IMG/VR virus record: IMGVR_UViG_2541047680_000005
Strand: one strand, 5' to 3'
Source: a virus
Lineage: Duplodnaviria > Heunggongvirae > Uroviricota > Caudoviricetes
DNA: 12,296 nt
Shown here: positions 1,961 through 12,205 of the stretch, piece by piece
Layout: every line of letters starts with the position of its first letter
Numbering within the stretch: position 1 is the stretch's first letter
Position numbers and translations under genes: made by a program
Notes under the pieces: generated by a model
Seen by the model: only the letters and a program-made list of their open reading frames with translations
Database searches by the model: none
What the model was told of the DNA's origin: nothing

Positions 1961-2182
1961 ATGAAACCAGAAGAACTTATTCGCCACTTTGGCAGTGTAG
2001 AAAAAGCAGCGGCTGGGGTAGGTGTAACACCCGGTGCTGTTTACCAATGGTTAACCGCTGGAGAGATTCCTTCATTGCGGCAAAGTGATATTGAAGTTCG
2101 TACTGCTTACAAGCTGAAGAGTGACTTTACAACTCGGCGGGTAAAGCAGTCGATTAAGGAGAGCCGTAAGCGTGGAGCTTGA
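1961..2182 (+). CDS. cro: Cro-like DNA-binding protein
   Basis: Track ORF 1934..2182; from Met10 the protein MKPEELIRHFGSVEKAAAGVGVTPGAVYQWL resembles P22 Cro as I recall it (MYKKDVIDHFG...ISDAAVSQW). Start at 1961 is preferred over 1934 on that alignment; neither has a strong SD, so the message may be nearly leaderless. Confidence 0.8.
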   Translation: MKPEELIRHFGSVEKAAAGVGVTPGAVYQWLTAGEIPSLRQSDIEVRTAYKLKSDFTTRRVKQSIKESRKRGA

Positions 2183-2882
2183 GTATATACGCAGCTGCGT
2201 CTCCACGGCATTGGCTGATATTCATTATCGCCAGCGTGGCATCCTAGAGGTCCAGCTTGAGCAGATGCGTCTAGGCAGATCAGGACGCTTTAACAATAAA
2301 CCAGTCCGGTCAATCAGTGTAGGTGATGATAACTCATACGAAGTGTCCGTTCCTGCTGAGCCGGTTAGATTCCACCAGGGGAAAACATTTAAACAATCAT
2401 CAATGTTGCTCACTGATATTGATTTTCAGAGCGCCAGCTGGCGCAGGGCTATTGGTCAGTTGAATAACGAGGAATCAGCCTGGCTTTATTATTGCTACGG
2501 ATGCAAGCCTGATTACAACAATGATGTGATTGTTTGTCAGTGGTTATGGCTTGATTTTCTGGTTGCTCATTCGGGGGGCGGCTTTAAAAAAATGAAGGCC
2601 TCCACGAAAAAAGCCATGCGGAAATTGATTTATTACGCGGCACAGCAGGTTAAATCAGAACTTACGTGTGCTGAGGCAGTTGATGAGAGAGAACAGGACA
2701 GGCATCTGAGTTTTCTACTGAATATATCTATTGATAGCTGGAGACAAGATTATAAAGAACGCTGGCTTTTAATTAAGTCGCGATGTCTGAGCTTAAATCG
2801 AACTGCATTATTAAATGCGGCGGAGAAGCGCAGTGAAATCATCAAACGCCATCGGGCAGGAAGTGCCATTCTGCCTTTGTAA
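2172..2882 (+). CDS. Hypothetical early protein (236 aa) immediately after cro; possible regulator
   Basis: GTG start at 2172 with AAGGAG 11 nt upstream, overlapping the cro stop. No motif I can assign with confidence. Position matches where cII or Q-like regulators sit in some temperate phages, but that is positional only. Confidence 0.6.
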   Translation: MELEYIRSCVSTALADIHYRQRGILEVQLEQMRLGRSGRFNNKPVRSISVGDDNSYEVSVPAEPVRFHQGKTFKQSSMLLTDIDFQSASWRRAIGQLNNEESAWLYYCYGCKPDYNNDVIVCQWLWLDFLVAHSGGGFKKMKASTKKAMRKLIYYAAQQVKSELTCAEAVDEREQDRHLSFLLNISIDSWRQDYKERWLLIKSRCLSLNRTALLNAAEKRSEIIKRHRAGSAILPL

Positions 2883-3135
2883 ACAAGTTATGTTCAGGAA
2901 ACCGTCGAAGCCAGAATTAAGGTATTCGGGGGTAAGAAATGAATATGTTATCTGGTGTCCAACTTGTGGTTACAGGACACGACCAGATAGTAATAAGCAG
3001 TCTGTAATTGCCGATTGGTATTTATCAAATCAGCCAGGTAATAAGCATATAGAAAATCTTTGGATTAAGCGTTACTTGGAAATCAGAGAGGGTGCGACCG
3101 TGGTCGCACAAGAAAATGAAAATAACGCCATTTAA
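2815..3135 (+). CDS. Small Cys-rich (CxC...CxxC) putative zinc-ribbon protein
   Basis: Track ORF. Contains FCLC and CPTCGY. Start is uncertain: ATG 2815 overlaps the upstream gene by 68 nt, and the alternative ATG at 2890 lacks an SD and would drop the first Cys pair. The last 15 codons include one copy of the 18-bp palindrome. Confidence 0.4.
   Translation: MRRRSAVKSSNAIGQEVPFCLCKQVMFRKPSKPELRYSGVRNEYVIWCPTCGYRTRPDSNKQSVIADWYLSNQPGNKHIENLWIKRYLEIREGATVVAQENENNAI
3092..3109. repeat. 18-bp palindrome copy 2 (GTGCGACCGTGGTCGCAC)
   Basis: Perfect 8-bp arms with GT centre; at the 3' end of ORF 2815..3135, where it again encodes ATVVAQ. Confidence 0.6.
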
Positions 3136-3342: not shown

Positions 3343-3942
3343 GTGACTAATCAGATTATTTACGACAGGAAACGGTCTGATGTAATGATTGACCTTGAAA
3401 CAATGGGTACTAACACATGTGCTCCAATTGTTTCTATCGGGGCAGTGTTTTTTTCTCCAGAAAGTGAGGAATTAGGTCCTACTTTTTATGTACCAGTGAA
3501 TCTCAGAAGCTCGATGTTGAATGGTGGTGTCGCCGATGGTGATACCATTTTATGGTGGTTGAAACAGAGCAAGGAAGCCAGAGCCGCAATTTGTACTAAT
3601 GATGCCCTTGATATTAAGGATGCACTTTTTGAATTATCACACTTTATTACTTGCCATGCATGTAATTTAAAAAAATTGAAAGTATGGGGAAATGGAGCAA
3701 CGTTCGATAATGTGATTTTACGCGGTGCTTATGAGCGCGTTGGCTTAGCCTGTCCGTGGGAATATTTTAATGATCAGGATGTTCGAACAATCGTTAATCT
3801 TGGTCAGTTTATTGGTTTTAATCCTAAAAAAGATATGCCATTTGATGGCGAACGACACAATGCCCTGGCTGATGCTATTCATCAGGCTAAATATGTATCC
3901 GCAATTTTCTCCCGTCTTGTAAAAGGGCAAGGAGAATCGTAA
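3343..3942 (+). CDS. DEDDh-family 3'-5' exonuclease (DnaQ-like fold)
   Basis: GTG start with GAGGAG 8 nt upstream. Motifs: MIDLETMG (Exo I, D-x-E), a central Asp-containing segment, and HNALADAIH (Exo III, H-x4-D). Confidence 0.8.
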   Translation: MTNQIIYDRKRSDVMIDLETMGTNTCAPIVSIGAVFFSPESEELGPTFYVPVNLRSSMLNGGVADGDTILWWLKQSKEARAAICTNDALDIKDALFELSHFITCHACNLKKLKVWGNGATFDNVILRGAYERVGLACPWEYFNDQDVRTIVNLGQFIGFNPKKDMPFDGERHNALADAIHQAKYVSAIFSRLVKGQGES

Positions 3943-6238: not shown

Positions 6239-6526
6239 TTAATAAACAGCGCGAATATCGATGGTTGCGCCGCAGGCATGAGCATATTTAGCCAAAGTTT
6301 TCATACTTGCCCCTAAAGGATTGCTTTCCAGGCGGCTGATGGCTGACGGTCGCAACCCCATTCGTTCAGCCAGAGCTGATTTCGTTAAACCTGCTCTTTC
6401 CCTCATTTCGTATAACATTTCGACCATCTCCAGCTCTTTGTCGGCCTCTTCATATCCTTTGACGGCTTCTGGAGTGTTGAGGAGTTTTTCTTTTACTTCG
6501 TTAAACGGGATGCCTTTCGCTTTCAT
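6239..6526 (-). CDS. HigA-like antitoxin (XRE-family HTH)
   Basis: 95 aa, with HTH segment LTKSALAERMGLRPSAISRLE. The start overlaps the toxin stop (ATGA at 6526) and the gene lies downstream of the toxin, the HigBA-type order. Confidence 0.8.
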   Translation of the reverse strand: MKAKGIPFNEVKEKLLNTPEAVKGYEEADKELEMVEMLYEMRERAGLTKSALAERMGLRPSAISRLESNPLGASMKTLAKYAHACGATIDIRAVY

Positions 6527-6837
6527 CAGTTCATCTCCTTCAGGCGAGTTCTGGCGATTTCGATAGCCTTCACCGGTGTTTTCTGTGTCTTTTTTACAAA
6601 TGCATGCAATAGATAAATTTCGTTACCAGTCGCGTAGGCGTACAGCGTTCTTGCGATGTTTTTATCCCCTACTCGTAGTTCAAAAAGCCCTCCACCTATT
6701 ACACGGCTATGGGGCATCTTCAGTTTGTTGCCTTCCTTCTCCAGTCGCTCAATTAATCTGGTCATGCGACCTCGCAAATCATCTGGTAGTTCAAGCAGTT
6801 CATCCAGTGCTGCAGGGTGGGTTATCACGTTAAACAT
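6526..6837 (-). CDS. RelE/ParE-superfamily toxin of the HigB / phage Gp49-like group
   Basis: 103 aa; size, toxin-first order and overall sequence resemble the Gp49-like (DUF891) killer proteins as I recall them; the family is named after phage N15 gp49. Confidence 0.75.
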   Translation of the reverse strand: MFNVITHPAALDELLELPDDLRGRMTRLIERLEKEGNKLKMPHSRVIGGGLFELRVGDKNIARTLYAYATGNEIYLLHAFVKKTQKTPVKAIEIARTRLKEMN

Positions 6838-7237: not shown

Positions 7238-7465
7238 ATGAATATTAATGAAATTCGTGGAAATATGACTGAAGCGGCCCTGAGTGTGGAATGTGTTATG
7301 CGTGGATACCCACGCATTTCCCTGAAAGAGTTAAGCGAAGCCTGTTTTTTGAGTCAAGCTGCCGTTGAATTTATCATCGAACAGATGATCTGTTTTGGGG
7401 TTGCAAAGCGTAGCGGGTCTGGTCGATATTCTTTGACCGATGAATATAAGCAGGCAACTTTCTAA
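7238..7465 (+). CDS. Hypothetical protein (75 aa), possible small DNA-binding regulator
   Basis: SD GAGAGG 6 nt upstream. Directly followed by a palindrome copy and a structured noncoding region. Confidence 0.55.
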   Translation: MNINEIRGNMTEAALSVECVMRGYPRISLKELSEACFLSQAAVEFIIEQMICFGVAKRSGSGRYSLTDEYKQATF

Positions 7466-7470
7466 AAACT

Positions 7471-7488
7471 GTGCGACCACGGTCGCAC
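7471..7488. repeat. 18-bp palindrome copy 3 (GTGCGACCACGGTCGCAC, arms extend to 10 bp)
   Basis: Begins 6 bp after the stop of gene 7238..7465, at the head of the structured noncoding region. Confidence 0.6.
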
Positions 7489-7573
7489 AGCACAAAAACG
7501 AAAAAGCTTGGCAAAATTACGGTTTTTAGTTATTGTTTTGTTAAGTTGGGTTTTTTGTACCCAACAGCCAACA

Positions 7574-7597
7574 AGCCGCCTTTATGGCGGTTTTTTT
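7574..7597 (+). terminator. Intrinsic terminator (short GC stem CCGCC / GGCGG, loop TTTAT, then T7)
   Basis: Stem 7576..7580 / 7586..7590 followed by TTTTTTT at 7591..7597; downstream of the small-gene pair and upstream of the methyltransferase. Confidence 0.5.
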
Positions 7598-7614
7598 GTG
7601 CCTGAAAAGTGGGC

Positions 7615-7640
7615 GCAGGACAAGTTGCAGCTTGTCCTGC
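7615..7640. repeat. Perfect 10-bp inverted repeat GCAGGACAAG-TTGCAG-CTTGTCCTGC
   Basis: Read directly; no T-tract follows, so not a classic terminator. Candidate protein-binding site or RNA stem-loop. Confidence 0.5.
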
Positions 7641-7684
7641 GGTCAACCCATGCCAGAGCTATAGGCTGAACCTAAAGCCCACCC

Positions 7685-7698
7685 GCGATGCGCATCGC
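7685..7698. repeat. Perfect 14-bp palindrome GCGATGCGCATCGC
   Basis: Read directly; contains the ATG at 7688 that the ORF track uses as the methyltransferase start. Confidence 0.45.
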
Positions 7699-7732
7699 CG
7701 GGTTAGCTTACCCAGGCAAAAAAATAATAGCT

Positions 7733-8809
7733 ATGTTCAAAACCACTAATATTCATGGCGCGCAACTCGTTTGCGCAGATTCTCTGCAATTTATCAAAAC
7801 CATCCCTGATAACTCGGTCAATTTGATTGCAACAGACCCACCATACTTCGGCGTAAAGGCTAACGCATGGGATAACCAGTGGGATAGCGATGCTGACTTT
7901 TTGGGGTGGATTGATGAATTTTTGGCAGAATTTTGGCGGATATTGGCCCCTAATGGCAGCCTGTATATGTTTACCGGCTCTCGCCTTGCGTCAAAAATTG
8001 AATTATTAACTCGCGACCGTTTCAATGTTCTGAACCATATCATTTGGGCTAAACCCAGTGGTATGTGGCGCGGTTGTCATAAAGAAAGTTTAAGGGCTTA
8101 TTTTCCTGCCACTGAAAGAATATTATTTGCAGAGCATTACGGCGCGTCAGGTTATGCTAAAGGTCAGTCAGGTTATGCTTCAAAATGTGCAGATTTAAGA
8201 AAAAATATTTTTTCTCCACTAATTGATGCTTTTTCGCTGGCTCGCCGTCAGTTAGATATATCAGCCGCAGACATTAATTCAGCAACAGGAAAGCAGATGT
8301 GTTCGCACTGGTTTTCTTATTCGCAGTGGCGGCTTCCATCATTAAGTGATTTTAATAAACTATGCGAATTATTTCGCAGGAAGGCAGATTCACTCGGTGT
8401 CCCGTGTCCATATCCTTTTAATGTTGATTATTCAGAACATGAAAAGCGTTATAGCGATCTGAAATTGCGTTATGAGGAAGTAAAGAAGCAGTATGATGAT
8501 TTGAAGGCTCAGTATGAAAATTTGCGCCGCCCATTTCATGTTACTGCTGATGTACCTTATACCGATGTATGGGAGTTTCCTCCTGTGCAATATTATCCTG
8601 GCAAGCACCCATGTGAAAAACCTGCAGCGATGATGGAACATATTATAAAAAGTAGTTCCCGCTCCGGAGATATCGTTGCCGATTTCTTTATGGGATCAGG
8701 CTCTACTATTAAAGCCGCGCTGAAGTTAGGTCGTCAGGCAATCGGTATTGAGATTGAGGGTGAACGTTATCTTCAGACAGTTGATGAAGTGAAAAAGTTA
8801 TTTGAGTAA
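7733..8809 (+). CDS. Orphan beta-class DNA methyltransferase (N6-adenine or N4-cytosine)
   Basis: DPPY (motif IV) near the N-terminus in NLIATDPPYFG and FFMGSGST (motif I, AdoMet binding) near the C-terminus; this motif order defines the beta class. A coiled-coil-like insert (YSDLKLRYEEVKKQYDDLKAQYENLRR) lies between them. Start ATG 7733 chosen so DPPY sits ~35 aa from the N-terminus; the ATG at 7688 is possible. No restriction endonuclease partner is visible. Confidence 0.8.
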   Translation: MFKTTNIHGAQLVCADSLQFIKTIPDNSVNLIATDPPYFGVKANAWDNQWDSDADFLGWIDEFLAEFWRILAPNGSLYMFTGSRLASKIELLTRDRFNVLNHIIWAKPSGMWRGCHKESLRAYFPATERILFAEHYGASGYAKGQSGYASKCADLRKNIFSPLIDAFSLARRQLDISAADINSATGKQMCSHWFSYSQWRLPSLSDFNKLCELFRRKADSLGVPCPYPFNVDYSEHEKRYSDLKLRYEEVKKQYDDLKAQYENLRRPFHVTADVPYTDVWEFPPVQYYPGKHPCEKPAAMMEHIIKSSSRSGDIVADFFMGSGSTIKAALKLGRQAIGIEIEGERYLQTVDEVKKLFE

Positions 8810-8904: not shown

Positions 8905-9177
8905 ATGAAGATGGATGAACGATACAGCAGCGCATCTTATGGTAGTGCTGGTCTTACTGCGTTCTTTGCCAGCCTGTCATTGCAGGATTGGGGCTTCATT
9001 ATCGGTGTCGCGTTCAGCATTATCCTCGGTGTACTTACATACCGGCTCAATAAACGCGAGCAGATGAAGCGCACGAAGATATTGCAGGACATATTGGATA
9101 AAACTGATGCCAATAATATTTCCGCCACGGCGATGGTTATTGGTGAATTGGGAAAGAGAGCACCGAAGGAAATATGA
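8905..9177 (+). CDS. Class II (pinholin-like) holin with dual-start motif
   Basis: 90 aa. Begins MKMDERY (Met1-Lys2-Met3, the classic antiholin/holin dual start). Two hydrophobic segments, [12 protein letters not shown] and [18 protein letters not shown], then a charged C-terminal tail. SD GAGGT 7 nt upstream. Directly precedes a SAR endolysin and resembles phage 21 S21 as I recall it. Confidence 0.8.
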
Positions 9178-9674
9178 TGCAGTCATCATTACGCAAAGCT
9201 GTCGCAACAGCTATTGGTGGCGGGGCTATTGCCATAGCATCTGTGCTCATCTCTGGTCCGAGCGGCAACGATGGTCTGGAAGGTGTGAGACATAACCCCT
9301 ACAAAGACATCGTTGGTGTATGGACTGTATGTTACGGGCATACAGGAAAAGACATTATGCTCGGTAAAACGTATACCGAAGCAGAATGCAAAGCTCTCCT
9401 GAATAAAGACCTTGCTACTGTCGCCAGACAAATTAACCCGTACATCAAAGTCGATATACCGGAAACAACGCGTGGTGCTCTTTACTCGTTCGTTTACAAC
9501 GTGGGTGCAGGCAATTTCAGAACATCGACACTTCTTCGCAAAATCAACCAGGGCGATATCAAAGGTGCATGTGATCAACTACGTCGCTGGACATATGCTG
9601 GCGGTAAGCAATGGAAAGGGCTGATGACTCGCCGTGAGATTGAGCGTGAAGTCTGTTTGTGGGGGCAGCAATGA
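9174..9674 (+). CDS. SAR endolysin (T4-lysozyme-like, GH24)
   Basis: N-terminal Gly/Ala-rich weakly hydrophobic segment [20 protein letters not shown] (signal-arrest-release type). Catalytic E-x8-D-x5-T spacing in [17 protein letters not shown]. Start overlaps the holin stop. Confidence 0.9.
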
Positions 9675-10138
9675 GCAGAGTAACCGCAATTATCTCCGCA
9701 CTGGTTATCTGCATCATCGTCTGCCTGTCGTGGGCTGTTAATCATTACCGTGATAACGCCATCGCCTACAAAGAACAGCGTGATAAAAAAGTCAGTGAGC
9801 TGAAGCAGGCGACCGCCACCATCGCTGACATGCAGCAGCGTCAGCGTGATGTTGCTGCGCTCGATGCAAAATACACGAAGGAGTTGGCTGATGCGAAAGC
9901 TGAAAATGATGCTCTTCGGCGCAAGCTTGATAATGGTGGTCGGGTGCTCGTCAAAGGAAAATGCTCTGTGCCATCCTCAGCCGAAACCTCCAGCGCCTCC
10001 GGCATGGGCAATGATGCCACCGTCGAACTCTCTCCAGTTGCTGGACGAAACGTTCTCGGTATCCGGGACGGAATCATCAGAGACCAGACAGCACTGAGAA
10101 CGCTTCAGGAATACATCAAGACGCAATGCCCGAATTAA
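9671..10138 (+). CDS. Rz: Rz-like inner-membrane spanin
   Basis: ATG 9671 overlaps the endolysin stop, with GGGGG 5 nt upstream. N-terminal TM helix [18 protein letters not shown], then a coiled-coil-like periplasmic domain. Contains the Rz1 gene in the +1 frame. Confidence 0.85.
9891..10097 (+). CDS. Rz1: Rz1-like outer-membrane lipoprotein spanin, embedded in Rz
   Basis: [44 protein letters not shown]: lipobox VVGC and a Pro-rich mature region, closely resembling lambda Rz1 as I recall it (MLKLKMML...VVVGCTSK...PPPPPAW). AAGGAG 7 nt upstream of the ATG. Confidence 0.8.
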
Positions 10139-10179: not shown

Positions 10180-10491
10180 ATGAAAATTTATATTGCCGGG
10201 CCAATGACTGGATATGAGAACTTTAATCGTGACGCCTTTAATAAAGAGGCAGATCGTTTGTCACGACATGGTCACTCTGTCTTGAATCCAGCCACTTTGC
10301 CTAATGGTCTGACACAACGTGAATACATGGATATTTGCTTTGCAATGCTTCGTTGTGCTGATGCTATTTTGATGCTTCCTGGCTGGAAAGCGTCTGCTGG
10401 AGCAACTGCTGAGTATCATTACGCATACAAGATGGAGATGCCGGTATTCACTACGCTGAATTACCCGCCAGCTTGTTCCTCTGTAGCATAA
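10180..10491 (+). CDS. DUF4406-like protein (nucleoside 2-deoxyribosyltransferase-like fold)
   Basis: 103 aa beginning MKIYIAGPMTGYENFNRDAF, the N-terminal signature of this phage-associated family as I recall it. Function unknown. Confidence 0.6.
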   Translation: MKIYIAGPMTGYENFNRDAFNKEADRLSRHGHSVLNPATLPNGLTQREYMDICFAMLRCADAILMLPGWKASAGATAEYHYAYKMEMPVFTTLNYPPACSSVA

Positions 10492-10510
10492 AAATCTCTT
10501 TGTTTCTCGT

Positions 10511-10528
10511 GTGCGACCGTGGTCGCAC
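10511..10528. repeat. 18-bp palindrome copy 4 (GTGCGACCGTGGTCGCAC)
   Basis: 20 bp after the stop of the DUF4406-like gene. Confidence 0.6.
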
Positions 10529-10730
10529 ATTAAATACCGCGCTGCATCGTCGCCGTATTTCCGCATTAACCATGACCGTAGCCCGACGGGGAACTCCTCT
10601 GCGCGAGTGTGCGGAAATAATCAAAAACGATGCACACCGGGTTTTTACCGCGCTAATGATTCGCGGGTTTGTCCCTCATGCTCGCCAGTCCTGTGCGAGG
10701 GTGGAAGAAACAGGGCATGTATTCAGGAGC

Positions 10731-10748
10731 GTGCGACCGTGGTCGCAC
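10731..10748. repeat. 18-bp palindrome copy 5 (GTGCGACCGTGGTCGCAC)
   Basis: 24 bp upstream of the start codon of gene 10772..11632; with copy 4 it brackets a ~200-bp noncoding stretch. Confidence 0.6.
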
Positions 10749-10771: not shown

Positions 10772-11632
10772 ATGAAAGAGTTGCAAAAAATTAATTCAAT
10801 AATGGAAAGATTAAGTGCTCTTGAGCGTAAGCTGGACGATTGTGGAAAGCTGTGTGTTGAAAAGCAAAATGAGCTTTACCGGGAATTTTTTACAATCGTA
10901 AGTGAGCTGATGCCAATTGTTAATAACTGCCTGATGACATCCAGATTTTTTAATGTCGATGCTACTACATCCAGAAAATTTTCTGTGAAAATTCAAGAAA
11001 GAGTTTCTGGTAGTGTGACAAGAGAGATGGCTGAACAGTTGGTGGCAATGAGCAATAAAACAAAAAGAAAAAAGGCATTGCTTGTAACAGCAAATCAGCT
11101 TTCAGGGCGCGTTGACTTTCAGGTCAGACAGGGTGGGCGTGTACTGGTAAATGATGCGTTCGTTGGACGTAGCTTTAGTCCTTACTCGATAAAATATGAT
11201 GTTGATGCAGATGATCAGGATATCAGCATTTCCTGGAAATCTGAGACAGCAGGGATTGTATTAACAGCAGAGTTGTTGAGTGATGATAAAAATGATGTCC
11301 AGCATCATTTGGACGAAAAGAATCATATTTCTGAAATTTGTATGAAGCCACGCAGCGGAATGACTTTATTGTCACGCACTCTTGCTGCTGGCTTTTCTGC
11401 ACCGGAAAAACGTGTGCTTCTGGTAGTGCCTGAAGATGCAGATATTCGACCACTGAATGGCTGTGATGTTATTAGTGCAAAAACATTGCATACCCGCGTC
11501 ATTCCTGTACCGGATGTGGTCATTATTGATGATGTTGAGAAATGCAAGTCTGTTTCCTCAACTGCCACAATCAAGCGAATTTTACGTTGTAGCACGTCGG
11601 CTGTTGTATTCCGGAAGCAGTTACATAACTAA
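10772..11632 (+). CDS. Hypothetical protein (286 aa), candidate cargo gene
   Basis: Strong SD AGGAGG 5 nt before ATG 10772. The track ORF 10511..11632 starts at a GTG inside palindrome copy 4 and is rejected. N-terminal coiled-coil-like segment; no recognisable catalytic motif. The region looks more AT-rich than the rest of the window by eye. Confidence 0.7.
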   Translation: MKELQKINSIMERLSALERKLDDCGKLCVEKQNELYREFFTIVSELMPIVNNCLMTSRFFNVDATTSRKFSVKIQERVSGSVTREMAEQLVAMSNKTKRKKALLVTANQLSGRVDFQVRQGGRVLVNDAFVGRSFSPYSIKYDVDADDQDISISWKSETAGIVLTAELLSDDKNDVQHHLDEKNHISEICMKPRSGMTLLSRTLAAGFSAPEKRVLLVVPEDADIRPLNGCDVISAKTLHTRVIPVPDVVIIDDVEKCKSVSSTATIKRILRCSTSAVVFRKQLHN

Positions 11633-11755: not shown

Positions 11756-12205
11756 ATGCAAGAAGAAGCAAATAAAATTCTTGTTGATTTATTGAAGAAG
11801 GCCAGCGATGGAATTGATTCCGCCATTGCATTCAGTCAGGCTCAGATTCCGGATGTTGTTCATCAGTTGCTGGTATGGAATATGGTTGATAGCCTGATTA
11901 AAACATTAATAGCCATTTCAACAATCCCGCTGGTTTTCTGGTTTATGAAAAAACAGTACCAAAAAGTTGAAATTGGTATATTCGATAATGAAGGATGGTC
12001 ATGGGAGAAGGGAAAGCCTAAATACAAACCGACTATGATTTGGGAAAGTAACGGTGAGATTAGTTTTCTTATCTTACCATTAGCAGCAGTTTTTGTTCTG
12101 TGGGTAAGTTTTATTATTGCTGTAGTAACCAATATGACATGGTTAAAAATCTGGTTGGCACCTAAGTTATATCTAATCGAATACGCAGCATCACTAATTA
12201 AATAG
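11756..12205 (+). CDS. Hypothetical membrane protein (149 aa, two predicted TM helices)
   Basis: ATG 11756 with AGGA 7 nt upstream (track start 11711 is TTG). TM segments LIKTLIAISTIPLVFWFM and ISFLILPLAAVFVLWVSFIIAVV. Visibly AT-rich. Confidence 0.6.
   Translation: MQEEANKILVDLLKKASDGIDSAIAFSQAQIPDVVHQLLVWNMVDSLIKTLIAISTIPLVFWFMKKQYQKVEIGIFDNEGWSWEKGKPKYKPTMIWESNGEISFLILPLAAVFVLWVSFIIAVVTNMTWLKIWLAPKLYLIEYAASLIK

Follow-up and report, generated by a model that had tools for sequence, protein, structure and literature searches.

The 12,296-nucleotide (nt) stretch of viral DNA analysed here (IMG/VR record IMGVR_UViG_2541047680_000005; hereafter, the window) carries a methyltransferase gene at 7733-8809. 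We consider it likely, judging from characterized relatives, that this gene, carried by an N15-like plasmid-prophage, specifies an M.EcoGII-family enzyme (a solitary beta-class N6-adenine methyltransferase), and that the enzyme is produced late and methylates progeny DNA without sequence specificity, allowing it to evade restriction. The enzyme is an ordinary member of a known, well-studied kind, and there is little new about the methyltransferase itself. The conserved folded RNA leader that precedes the gene is the only feature of this locus for which we found no description.

The gene and the parts of its product discussed below are as follows (all on the plus strand; AdoMet, S-adenosylmethionine).

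7733-8809, plus strand: putative DNA N6-adenine methyltransferase gene, 358 amino acid residues and a stop codon (PF01555; identities to N15 gp52, M.EcoGII, phiARM81ld p56, and Anc250)
7835-7846, plus strand: catalytic motif IV, DPPY, residues 35-38 (read from the sequence; invariant in a 55-sequence alignment)
8174-8521, plus strand: all-helical central region, residues 148-263, predicted to comprise a helix-turn-helix recognition domain between two long linker helices at 148-174 and 233-263 (AlphaFold2 secondary structure; fits the description of M.EcoGII in PMC11551740)
8450-8530, plus strand: heptad-patterned helix YSDLKLRYEEVKKQYDDLKAQYENLRR, residues 240-266, which had been called a coiled-coil insert (family alignment and length classes)
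8684-8707, plus strand: AdoMet-binding motif I, FFMGSGST, residues 318-325 (read from the sequence; F319, M320, G321, S322, and G323 invariant)

The plus-strand frame containing the gene is open from 7688 to 8809, and the start codon shared by the whole family is the ATG at 7733, giving 358 residues. The ATG at 7688, which is used in GenBank PV340565 and protein cluster P0001, is 45 nt too early and was rejected as the start: family alignments open at the Met of 7733, and the earlier triplet, for which phiKO2 has ATT, is part of the UGCGCA loop conserved in leader helix P4b. The product matched PF01555 (N6_N4_Mtase) over residues 29-346 (E 5.4e-46; 157.8 bits against a cut-off of 26.7) and PHROG 67, 'DNA methyltransferase' (E 8.8e-89). 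In the protein, motif IV comes first, then the helical region 148-263, then motif I, which is the order of the beta class. An earlier sequence-only reading had proposed this class from DPPY ahead of FFMGSGST, and the PF01555 match and the motif positions bear it out; its description of the open reading frame (ORF), the motifs, and the neighbours was correct, far beyond chance. The catalytic and AdoMet-binding motifs are all invariant over 55 homologs. The AlphaFold2 model (mean pLDDT, for predicted local distance difference test, 80.4; about 50-65 at residues 101-150 and 261-290) has a Rossmann-type fold, for which the top Foldseek matches were CcrM, MboIIA, BceJIV, and RsrI (E 8e-15 to 1e-11).

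Full-length relatives were found by tblastn in 93 phage records at E ≤ 1e-60. Over the full length, the window protein is 83% identical to the N15 gene 52 ORF, 62% to phiKO2 gp52, and 59% to PY54 gene 60, and the tblastn relatives in the Shiga toxin 2 (Stx2) phages, phiP27, 1720a-02, and SfV (orf48) are 55-57% identical to it. A large protein collection contained 3316 relatives at E ≤ 1e-10; the best 120 were all at least 54% identical, and nearly all of these covered 95-100% of the query. M.EcoGII, whose sequence was taken from Table S1 of PMC11551740, aligned with the window protein end to end without large gaps (56% identity, 200 of 359 positions, E 2e-142). The identity was 55% for phiARM81ld p56, and 61% and 69%, respectively, for the reconstructed ancestors Anc284 ('SUPREM') and Anc250. 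By these alignments, the protein is a member of the M.EcoGII family and an ortholog of N15 gp52.

M.EcoGII methylates adenine in any context; it is silent in the lysogen, and its expression is harmful to cells (PMC5778455). Murray et al. reported that the 1720a-02 enzyme is very similar to M.EcoGII (PMC5778455). The p56 protein of the Aeromonas phage phiARM81ld was described as having no sequence specificity, and p25 of Serratia phage OS31 gave protection against many enzymes sensitive to N6-methyladenine (m6A), with m6A in many contexts (PMC7556043). The stated homologs of OS31 p25, from phiP27 and IME1369_02, are 57-58% identical to the window protein. The ancestors that were expressed and purified, including Anc284 and Anc250, all methylated both DNA and RNA (PMC11551740). 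Since none of the tested relatives recognizes a particular sequence, the window enzyme is not expected to have a discrete motif, and methylation without a motif is the most likely outcome for its methylome, to judge from this kinship.

The central region is compatible with this expectation in its predicted architecture. In M.EcoGII, the corresponding region was described in 2024 as a charged two-helix linker beside a four-helix recognition domain with a helix-turn-helix; the charged linker is absent from M.PflMI and was proposed to give non-specific nucleic-acid binding (PMC11551740). The helices predicted between the Rossmann halves of the window protein (residues 148-174, 178-185, 190-193, 204-221, and 233-263, the last with 31 residues) fit the published domain plan in number, order, and length. 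In the alignment with M.RsrI, residues 15-112 and 248-338 of the window protein are aligned, and about 135 residues lie between these two blocks, compared with about 25 in M.RsrI.

In the segment YSDLKLRYEEVKKQYDDLKAQYENLRR, the 'a' positions are all Tyr and the 'd' positions all Leu or Val, with charged residues elsewhere; the pattern is a true heptad. On the predicted structure, this helix is the returning half of the charged linker. L257, R265, and R266 do not vary across 55 homologs, and Y254, Y261, and L264 scarcely vary. The matching helix in M.EcoGII is HHQLVSTYSELNRKYMELLSEYKNLRR, and Anc250 shares QYDDLKAQYENLRRPF exactly. Among 116 sequences (115 homologs and the window protein), the spacing from HWF..QW.LP to LRR.F falls into classes of 52, 53, 55, 58, 59, 61, and 62 residues. 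Exactly seven residues, or one heptad, separate the most frequent short class (52) from the most frequent long class (59), and the window protein and N15 are both in the 61-residue class. The sequence-only reading had called the segment an unusual insert. The helix is real (the segment lies in the predicted 31-residue helix 233-263), and it is extra in comparison with other beta-class enzymes such as M.RsrI and M.PflMI. However, it is conserved across several thousand phage relatives, it has the same length in N15 gp52, and M.EcoGII and the ancestors have a matching helix, so that part of the description was not sustained. A lineage-specific insertion was also rejected, as the matching helix is found in M.EcoGII, Anc250, and the 55 homologs.

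The element that carries the gene was recognized from its close relatives. Escherichia phages PhiR46_1 and YDC107_1 share 99.9% identity with the window region. Matches at 98-99.9% occurred in 16 of 5426 complete E. coli genomes, all to plasmids (mostly about 46 kb) and none to a chromosome. A complete relative (46.7 kb, 99.9% identical) is annotated with a protelomerase, SopA, a SopB-like member of the ParB family, and a large replication protein of the RepA type, together with a lambda-like head and tail gene set, a CI-like repressor, Cro, and Q. Based on these four plasmid functions and on SopB palindromes identical to the inverted repeats of N15, we assign the window to a linear plasmid-prophage of the N15 type (telomere phage-plasmids, Ravinvirus and relatives), of which it forms the right arm. 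N15-type plasmid-prophages are found in clinical and animal E. coli.

The palindromes deserve separate mention, since the sequence-only reading had left it undecided whether the target of the enzyme is related to them. The 18-bp sequence GTGCGACC(AC/GT)GGTCGCAC occurs at 648-665, 3091-3108, about 7470-7488, 10510-10527, and 10730-10747, that is, five copies of GTGCGACCNNGGTCGCAC in 12.3 kb; N15 has been described with four in its whole genome. The N15 centromere repeats IR1-IR4 are GTGCGACCACGGTCGCAC and variants differing only in the central dinucleotide (PMC7205306, Table 4). By this identity, the palindromes are SopB partition sites, and we rejected them as targets of the methylase. The N15 copies occupy corresponding places.

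The features that bear on expression of the gene are listed below.

2172-2882, plus strand: Q antiterminator gene (PF06323 Phage_antiter_Q, E 2e-84; the Prokaryotic Genome Annotation Pipeline, PGAP, agrees)
About 7470-7488, no strand assigned: SopB-binding centromere palindrome GTGCGACCACGGTCGCAC, about 20 bp 5' of the late promoter (identical to N15 IR1/IR4; phiKO2 has a 'putative plasmid partitioning site' in the same position)
7508-7536, plus strand: putative late promoter, with -35 TTGGCA (7508-7513), a 17-nt spacer, and -10 TATTGT (7531-7536) (consensus scan; aligns with the -35/-10 of N15 and with the phiKO2 'putative late promoter')
7573-7600, plus strand: intrinsic terminator in the position of lambda tR', with an 8-bp stem and a T run (terminator scan; annotated likewise in N15 and phiKO2)
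7605-7732, plus strand: structured RNA leader of about 130 nt with helices P1, P2, P3, P4a, and P4b, ending at the methyltransferase start codon (covariance model R1, 139 bits)

The region 7466-7745 aligns with N15, Enterobacter phage MStein-2023a, phiKO2, and PY54, and all five telomere phages in the alignment keep the terminator after the late promoter. In the N15 and phiKO2 records, the annotated order is the -35/-10 of a 'putative late promoter', a terminator, the methyltransferase, a second terminator, and the lysis genes. phiKO2 annotates a partition site ahead of the late promoter, and N15 has the same palindrome there, unannotated. In SfV, the order is Q, terminator, small ORF, methyltransferase, terminator, and S-R-Rz, and in phage 1720a-02 it is Q, small ORF, methyltransferase, and stx2A. 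By analogy with lambda, the layout of promoter and terminator is the PR'-tR' arrangement, in which a short RNA would be made constitutively and Q would be required for read-through. The methyltransferase gene is the first past the late promoter and terminator; because of this placement, its expression is probably off in the lysogen and turned on by Q. Such silence would match the published behaviour of M.EcoGII. The sequence-only reading had also suggested that the enzyme might time late events, which does not suit a gene that is itself late. The N15 Sop system reportedly facilitates late gene expression, according to the title of a 2008 paper in J Bacteriol; a link between the SopB site at 7471 and the activity of the late promoter would rest on that title.

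The plus-strand segment 7508-7600 should itself yield a constitutive RNA of about 60 nt, analogous to lambda 6S RNA or to StxS of Stx phages, with a first hairpin at about 7546-7565 followed by the terminator hairpin. The Rfam model AgrB matched this promoter-proximal terminator RNA with 27 bits against a cut-off of 40; the match is below threshold, lies outside the leader, and is probably due to chance.

The immediate neighbours of the gene are the following.

7238-7465, plus strand: small winged-helix ORF, the counterpart of N15 gp51 (weak winged-helix Pfam matches; distant alignment with SfV orf47 and a 1720a-02 ORF)
8905-9177, plus strand: holin gene (Pfam holin families just below their cut-offs; annotation of relatives agrees)
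9174-9674, plus strand: lysozyme gene (PF00959, E 5e-48)
9659-10138, plus strand: Rz gene (PF03245, E 6.5e-31)
9846-10097, plus strand: embedded candidate Rz1 ORF (read by eye only; lipobox-like LIMVVGC)

As had been read from the sequence, the gene lies directly upstream of the lysis cassette: its stop codon ends at 8809, and the holin gene starts at 8905, followed by lysozyme and Rz. Its orphan status also held, with no endonuclease among the flanking ORFs or in the annotation of the complete, near-identical 46.7-kb element. Searches against Pfam and PADLOC gave no nuclease or defence match among the neighbouring ORFs; a toxin-antitoxin pair on the minus strand (6239-6837) is the sole module close by. 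Two ORFs 3' of the lysis genes (10772-11632 and 11756-12205) belong to no recognizable family and could in principle include a novel nuclease. A Type II restriction-modification system was rejected, as no adjacent endonuclease gene was found by Pfam, PADLOC, or the annotation of the whole element.

We propose the following course of events. In the lysogen, transcription begun at the late promoter (7508-7536) would end at the terminator (7573-7600), and no enzyme would be made. Upon induction, Q would render the polymerase resistant to termination, if Q dependence follows the lambda/N15 model and the annotations of the records. The methyltransferase would then be the first protein of the late transcript, ahead of the lysis genes, as the gene order shows, and presumably of the terminase and structural genes. 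By the standard chemistry of the family, the Rossmann core with DPPY and FxGxG would flip out adenines and transfer to them the methyl group of AdoMet, while the helix-turn-helix domain and the positively charged two-helix linker, including the heptad helix, would hold the DNA without reading bases. Adenines would be methylated in most or all contexts, as expected from M.EcoGII, phiARM81ld p56, OS31 p25, and the ancestors, and progeny genomes would be packaged heavily m6A-modified and so resist many restriction systems in the next host. Protection against host restriction, one of the roles suggested earlier, is supported as the most likely one. A non-specific methylase switched on at induction would help N15-type plasmid-prophages cross restriction barriers between strains.

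Three points weigh against this proposal. An identity of 55-56% with the characterized enzymes leaves room for a change in specificity, especially in the recognition domain. The AlphaFold model of the methyltransferase is only moderately confident, at the mean pLDDT of 80.4 given above. Finally, the gene has no Shine-Dalgarno sequence at normal spacing, the sole AAGG being 12-14 nt upstream of the start; without a good Shine-Dalgarno sequence, expression may depend on something else, namely the leader.

The strongest competing explanation is an orphan adenine methyltransferase that is sequence-specific, acting at a short motif in the manner of Dam or at a different one, and that would protect against one particular restriction enzyme or regulate phage promoters or packaging. 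Most PF01555 enzymes are site-specific, the helix-turn-helix of the recognition domain could in principle read bases, and the RefSeq name of the protein is 'site-specific DNA-methyltransferase'. Matches to the site-specific NCBIfam equivalogs PRK11524 and CcrM were also obtained, but with scores far under the cut-offs (117 against 292 and 66 against 830, respectively), and we rejected both assignments. A Dam-type identity (alpha class, GATC) was rejected as well, because the motif order is reversed and no Dam family appeared among the Pfam and NCBIfam matches. The natural relatives tested at this level of identity (M.EcoGII, M.EcoGI, phiARM81ld p56, and OS31 p25) are all non-specific, and the charged linker sequence that marks the non-specific clade is present and conserved in the window protein. 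The closest site-specific enzyme, M.PflMI, has only 27% identity to M.EcoGII and lacks this linker (PMC11551740). We thus regard site specificity as improbable, and the RefSeq label as probably wrong.

It is still less probable that the main substrate in vivo is RNA, with m6A placed late in infection on transcripts of the phage or the host, or on the leader of the gene itself. M.EcoGII and all of the tested ancestors methylate RNA in vitro, Anc284 up to 69% of the adenines in one RNA substrate, and a conserved structured RNA precedes the gene. On the other hand, the initial velocity of M.EcoGII is about 90-fold higher on DNA than on RNA (Table S3 of PMC11551740), the place of the family at the head of late operons suits DNA modification prior to packaging, and no in vivo evidence for RNA methylation in bacteria is known. 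Inactive or decaying cargo, or an N4-cytosine methyltransferase, is very improbable, even though PF01555 includes enzymes of both the N6-adenine and the N4-cytosine type and the N15 record annotates a truncated gene 52 without DPPY: the same start gives an intact ORF both here and in N15, the catalytic and AdoMet-binding motifs do not vary among the homologs, M.EcoGII and Anc284 were shown to make m6A, the gene is conserved at 98-99.9% in the 16 E. coli plasmid-prophages carrying it, and DPPY is typical of N6-adenine enzymes, N4-cytosine enzymes usually having SPPY.

The leader between the terminator and the start codon was recognized because this stretch is more conserved than its flanks and shows paired substitutions between the N15-type, phiKO2, PY54, and SfV sequences. 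A covariance model was built from six sequences with a hand-set structure of 30 pairs, and both strands of the window and of 84 loci with related methyltransferase genes (360 kb) were searched at E ≤ 0.01. In these 85 sources, 55 matches were obtained, all on the sense strand and all directly 5' of a methyltransferase gene. In 53 of the 55, the match ends within a few bases of the methyltransferase start. The remaining two (loci L080 and L086) end about 145-170 nt upstream of it, where a Com-like ORF located ahead of the methyltransferase begins. In a separate search, phiARM81ld gave a match (34 bits, E 2e-8) whose end likewise coincides with the ATG of a Com-like ORF. The leader lies at L003:5873-6003 in N15, L007:2370-2503 in phiKO2, L008:2369-2503 in PY54, L005:3868-4003 in SfV, and L090:13875-14003 in phiARM81ld. 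No match, even without filtering, was obtained in 24 of the loci; their methyltransferases resemble those of Vibrio-hosted phages (Vibrio- and Aeromonas-type relatives).

The pairing was evaluated with 46 distinct sequences, in an alignment that was fitted to the covariance model and hence favours the structure. Standard pairs were formed in 81.7% of the pair cells, compared with 67.0 ± 0.7% after shuffling (none of 500 shuffles reached 81.7%), and with slid partners 34-47% were paired. Changes on both sides were observed in 21 of the 30 pairs, and the covariation score was 0.429 versus 0.198. Covariation is strong in helices P1, P2, and P4. P1 (UGGG with CCCA) is 100% paired, the sequence of P2 varies freely with its pairs kept, and P4a shows a swap of A-U to G-C (13 versus 26 sequences). 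P3 was misaligned by the covariance model and rests on reading by eye. The slid controls and the diversity of P2 argue for a real signal. The structure is one of the sense RNA, because its G-U pairs would read A-C in the opposite strand. A further hairpin, P5, which would hide the AAGG and compete with P4a, folds in most single sequences; it was rejected, as its 64.4% of paired cells equal the shuffled mean and it has no covariation support. We make no claim of an RNA switch acting through P5. A leader peptide was rejected too: no conserved reading frame was found in the leader, the 46-codon frame 7609-7749 being cut to 5 codons in phiKO2, and the insertions and deletions are not multiples of three. 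No Rfam family matched the leader or any other part of the window at gathering thresholds, and only weak matches appeared in 7480-7780 at E ≤ 10, the AgrB match described above being the best of them.

Tentatively, and with somewhat less confidence than even odds would call for, we suggest that the leader represents an undescribed class of cis-acting regulatory RNA on genes for toxic, non-specific adenine methyltransferases, which sets translation from an abundant late transcript. By analogy with com-mom of phage Mu, translational control of a harmful enzyme would be the most likely function. The leader may act by binding the enzyme itself, the winged-helix protein, or, in some relatives, Com; alternatively, it may respond to its own m6A modification. 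If the leader does control translation, this would explain how the phages keep a cell-damaging enzyme in bounds, and it would offer a means of expressing M.EcoGII-type enzymes, whose production is difficult.

Two small ORFs near the leader in relatives are noted here. In phiARM81ld, the leader is followed by a Com-like zinc-ribbon ORF (L090:14001-14216; PF10122, 27.9 bits), which comes before the methyltransferase and overlaps its start; Com-like ORFs are also at about 1304 in L080 and about 1325 in L086. They recall the translational activator of the Mu mom gene. The winged-helix ORF (64-76 residues with a shared MTE.A motif) also precedes the methyltransferase in SfV (L005:3657-3851), 1720a-02 (L004:3620-3850), and a Vibrio-type locus (L040:1230-1424). 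It is thus found in telomere phages, lambdoid phages, and one Vibrio-type locus, with 22-31% identity between the groups, and its product may be a partner or regulator of the methyltransferase.

Elsewhere in the window, the early right operon contains a gene for a 3'-5' exonuclease of an Rv2179c-like family (3343-3942, plus strand; PF16473, E 4e-68), named 'exodeoxyribonuclease VIII' in one record. The minus strand at 6239-6837 encodes a toxin-antitoxin pair, with a Gp49/HigB-RelE-type toxin (PF05973, E 2e-29) and an HTH_3 antitoxin, the counterpart of N15 genes 48/49. After the lysis cassette there is a DUF4406 (nucleoside 2-deoxyribosyltransferase-like) gene (10180-10491, plus strand), as in N15, phiKO2, and PY54. 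The next gene is the Dcm-like cytosine methyltransferase gene 58 in N15 and a 286-residue ORF (10772-11632, plus strand) without a Pfam or PADLOC match in the window, and the near-identical plasmid pPEC1013-3 has a shorter ORF in its place. The palindromes at 10510 and 10730 flank the gap between the DUF4406 gene and the ORF at 10772, and the slot after the DUF4406 gene looks like a variable cargo site bounded by SopB sites.

Among known systems, the closest are N15 gp52, phiKO2 gp52, and PY54 gene 60, which share with the window the order winged-helix ORF, SopB site, late promoter, terminator, methyltransferase, holin, lysozyme, and Rz. N15 differs in having the Dcm-like gene 58 downstream, which the window does not have. 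The N15 record NC_001901 starts gene 52 at 41621, which is 234 nt too late and loses the half with DPPY; the frame is open from the ATG at 41387, giving a full-length protein of 362 residues (L003:6001-7089; 41387-42475 in the record).

M.EcoGII and M.EcoGI, from prophages of E. coli O104:H4, have the same motif order and, going by the predicted helices of the window protein, the same helix-turn-helix recognition domain and charged linker helix, and they are solitary and prophage-borne like the window enzyme. Genes close to the M.EcoGII type are placed between Q and the late genes, as is the window gene. The window protein is 9 residues longer than M.EcoGII in the linker, which corresponds to one heptad and a 2-residue loop difference, and its host is a linear plasmid-prophage, whereas that of M.EcoGII is an integrated lambdoid prophage. 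The M.EcoGII family is already in use as a laboratory tool. The phiARM81ld p56 and OS31 p25 genes are, like the window gene, immediately upstream of a holin gene. ARM81ld is a protelomerase phage-plasmid with the same leader motif, but it has a Com-like ORF between the leader and the methyltransferase, which the window lacks.

M.RsrI, M.MboIIA, CcrM, and M.BceJIV share the Rossmann core and the motif order with the window protein. They are only 18-21% identical to it, act site-specifically, and have recognition regions that are either short or unrelated. The com-mom system of Mu is comparable only by analogy: a toxic, non-specific DNA-modifying late function lies behind a structured mRNA leader, and a Com-like protein is encoded in some relatives of the window. 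Mom is not a methyltransferase and has no sequence similarity to the window enzyme, and the window has no com gene.

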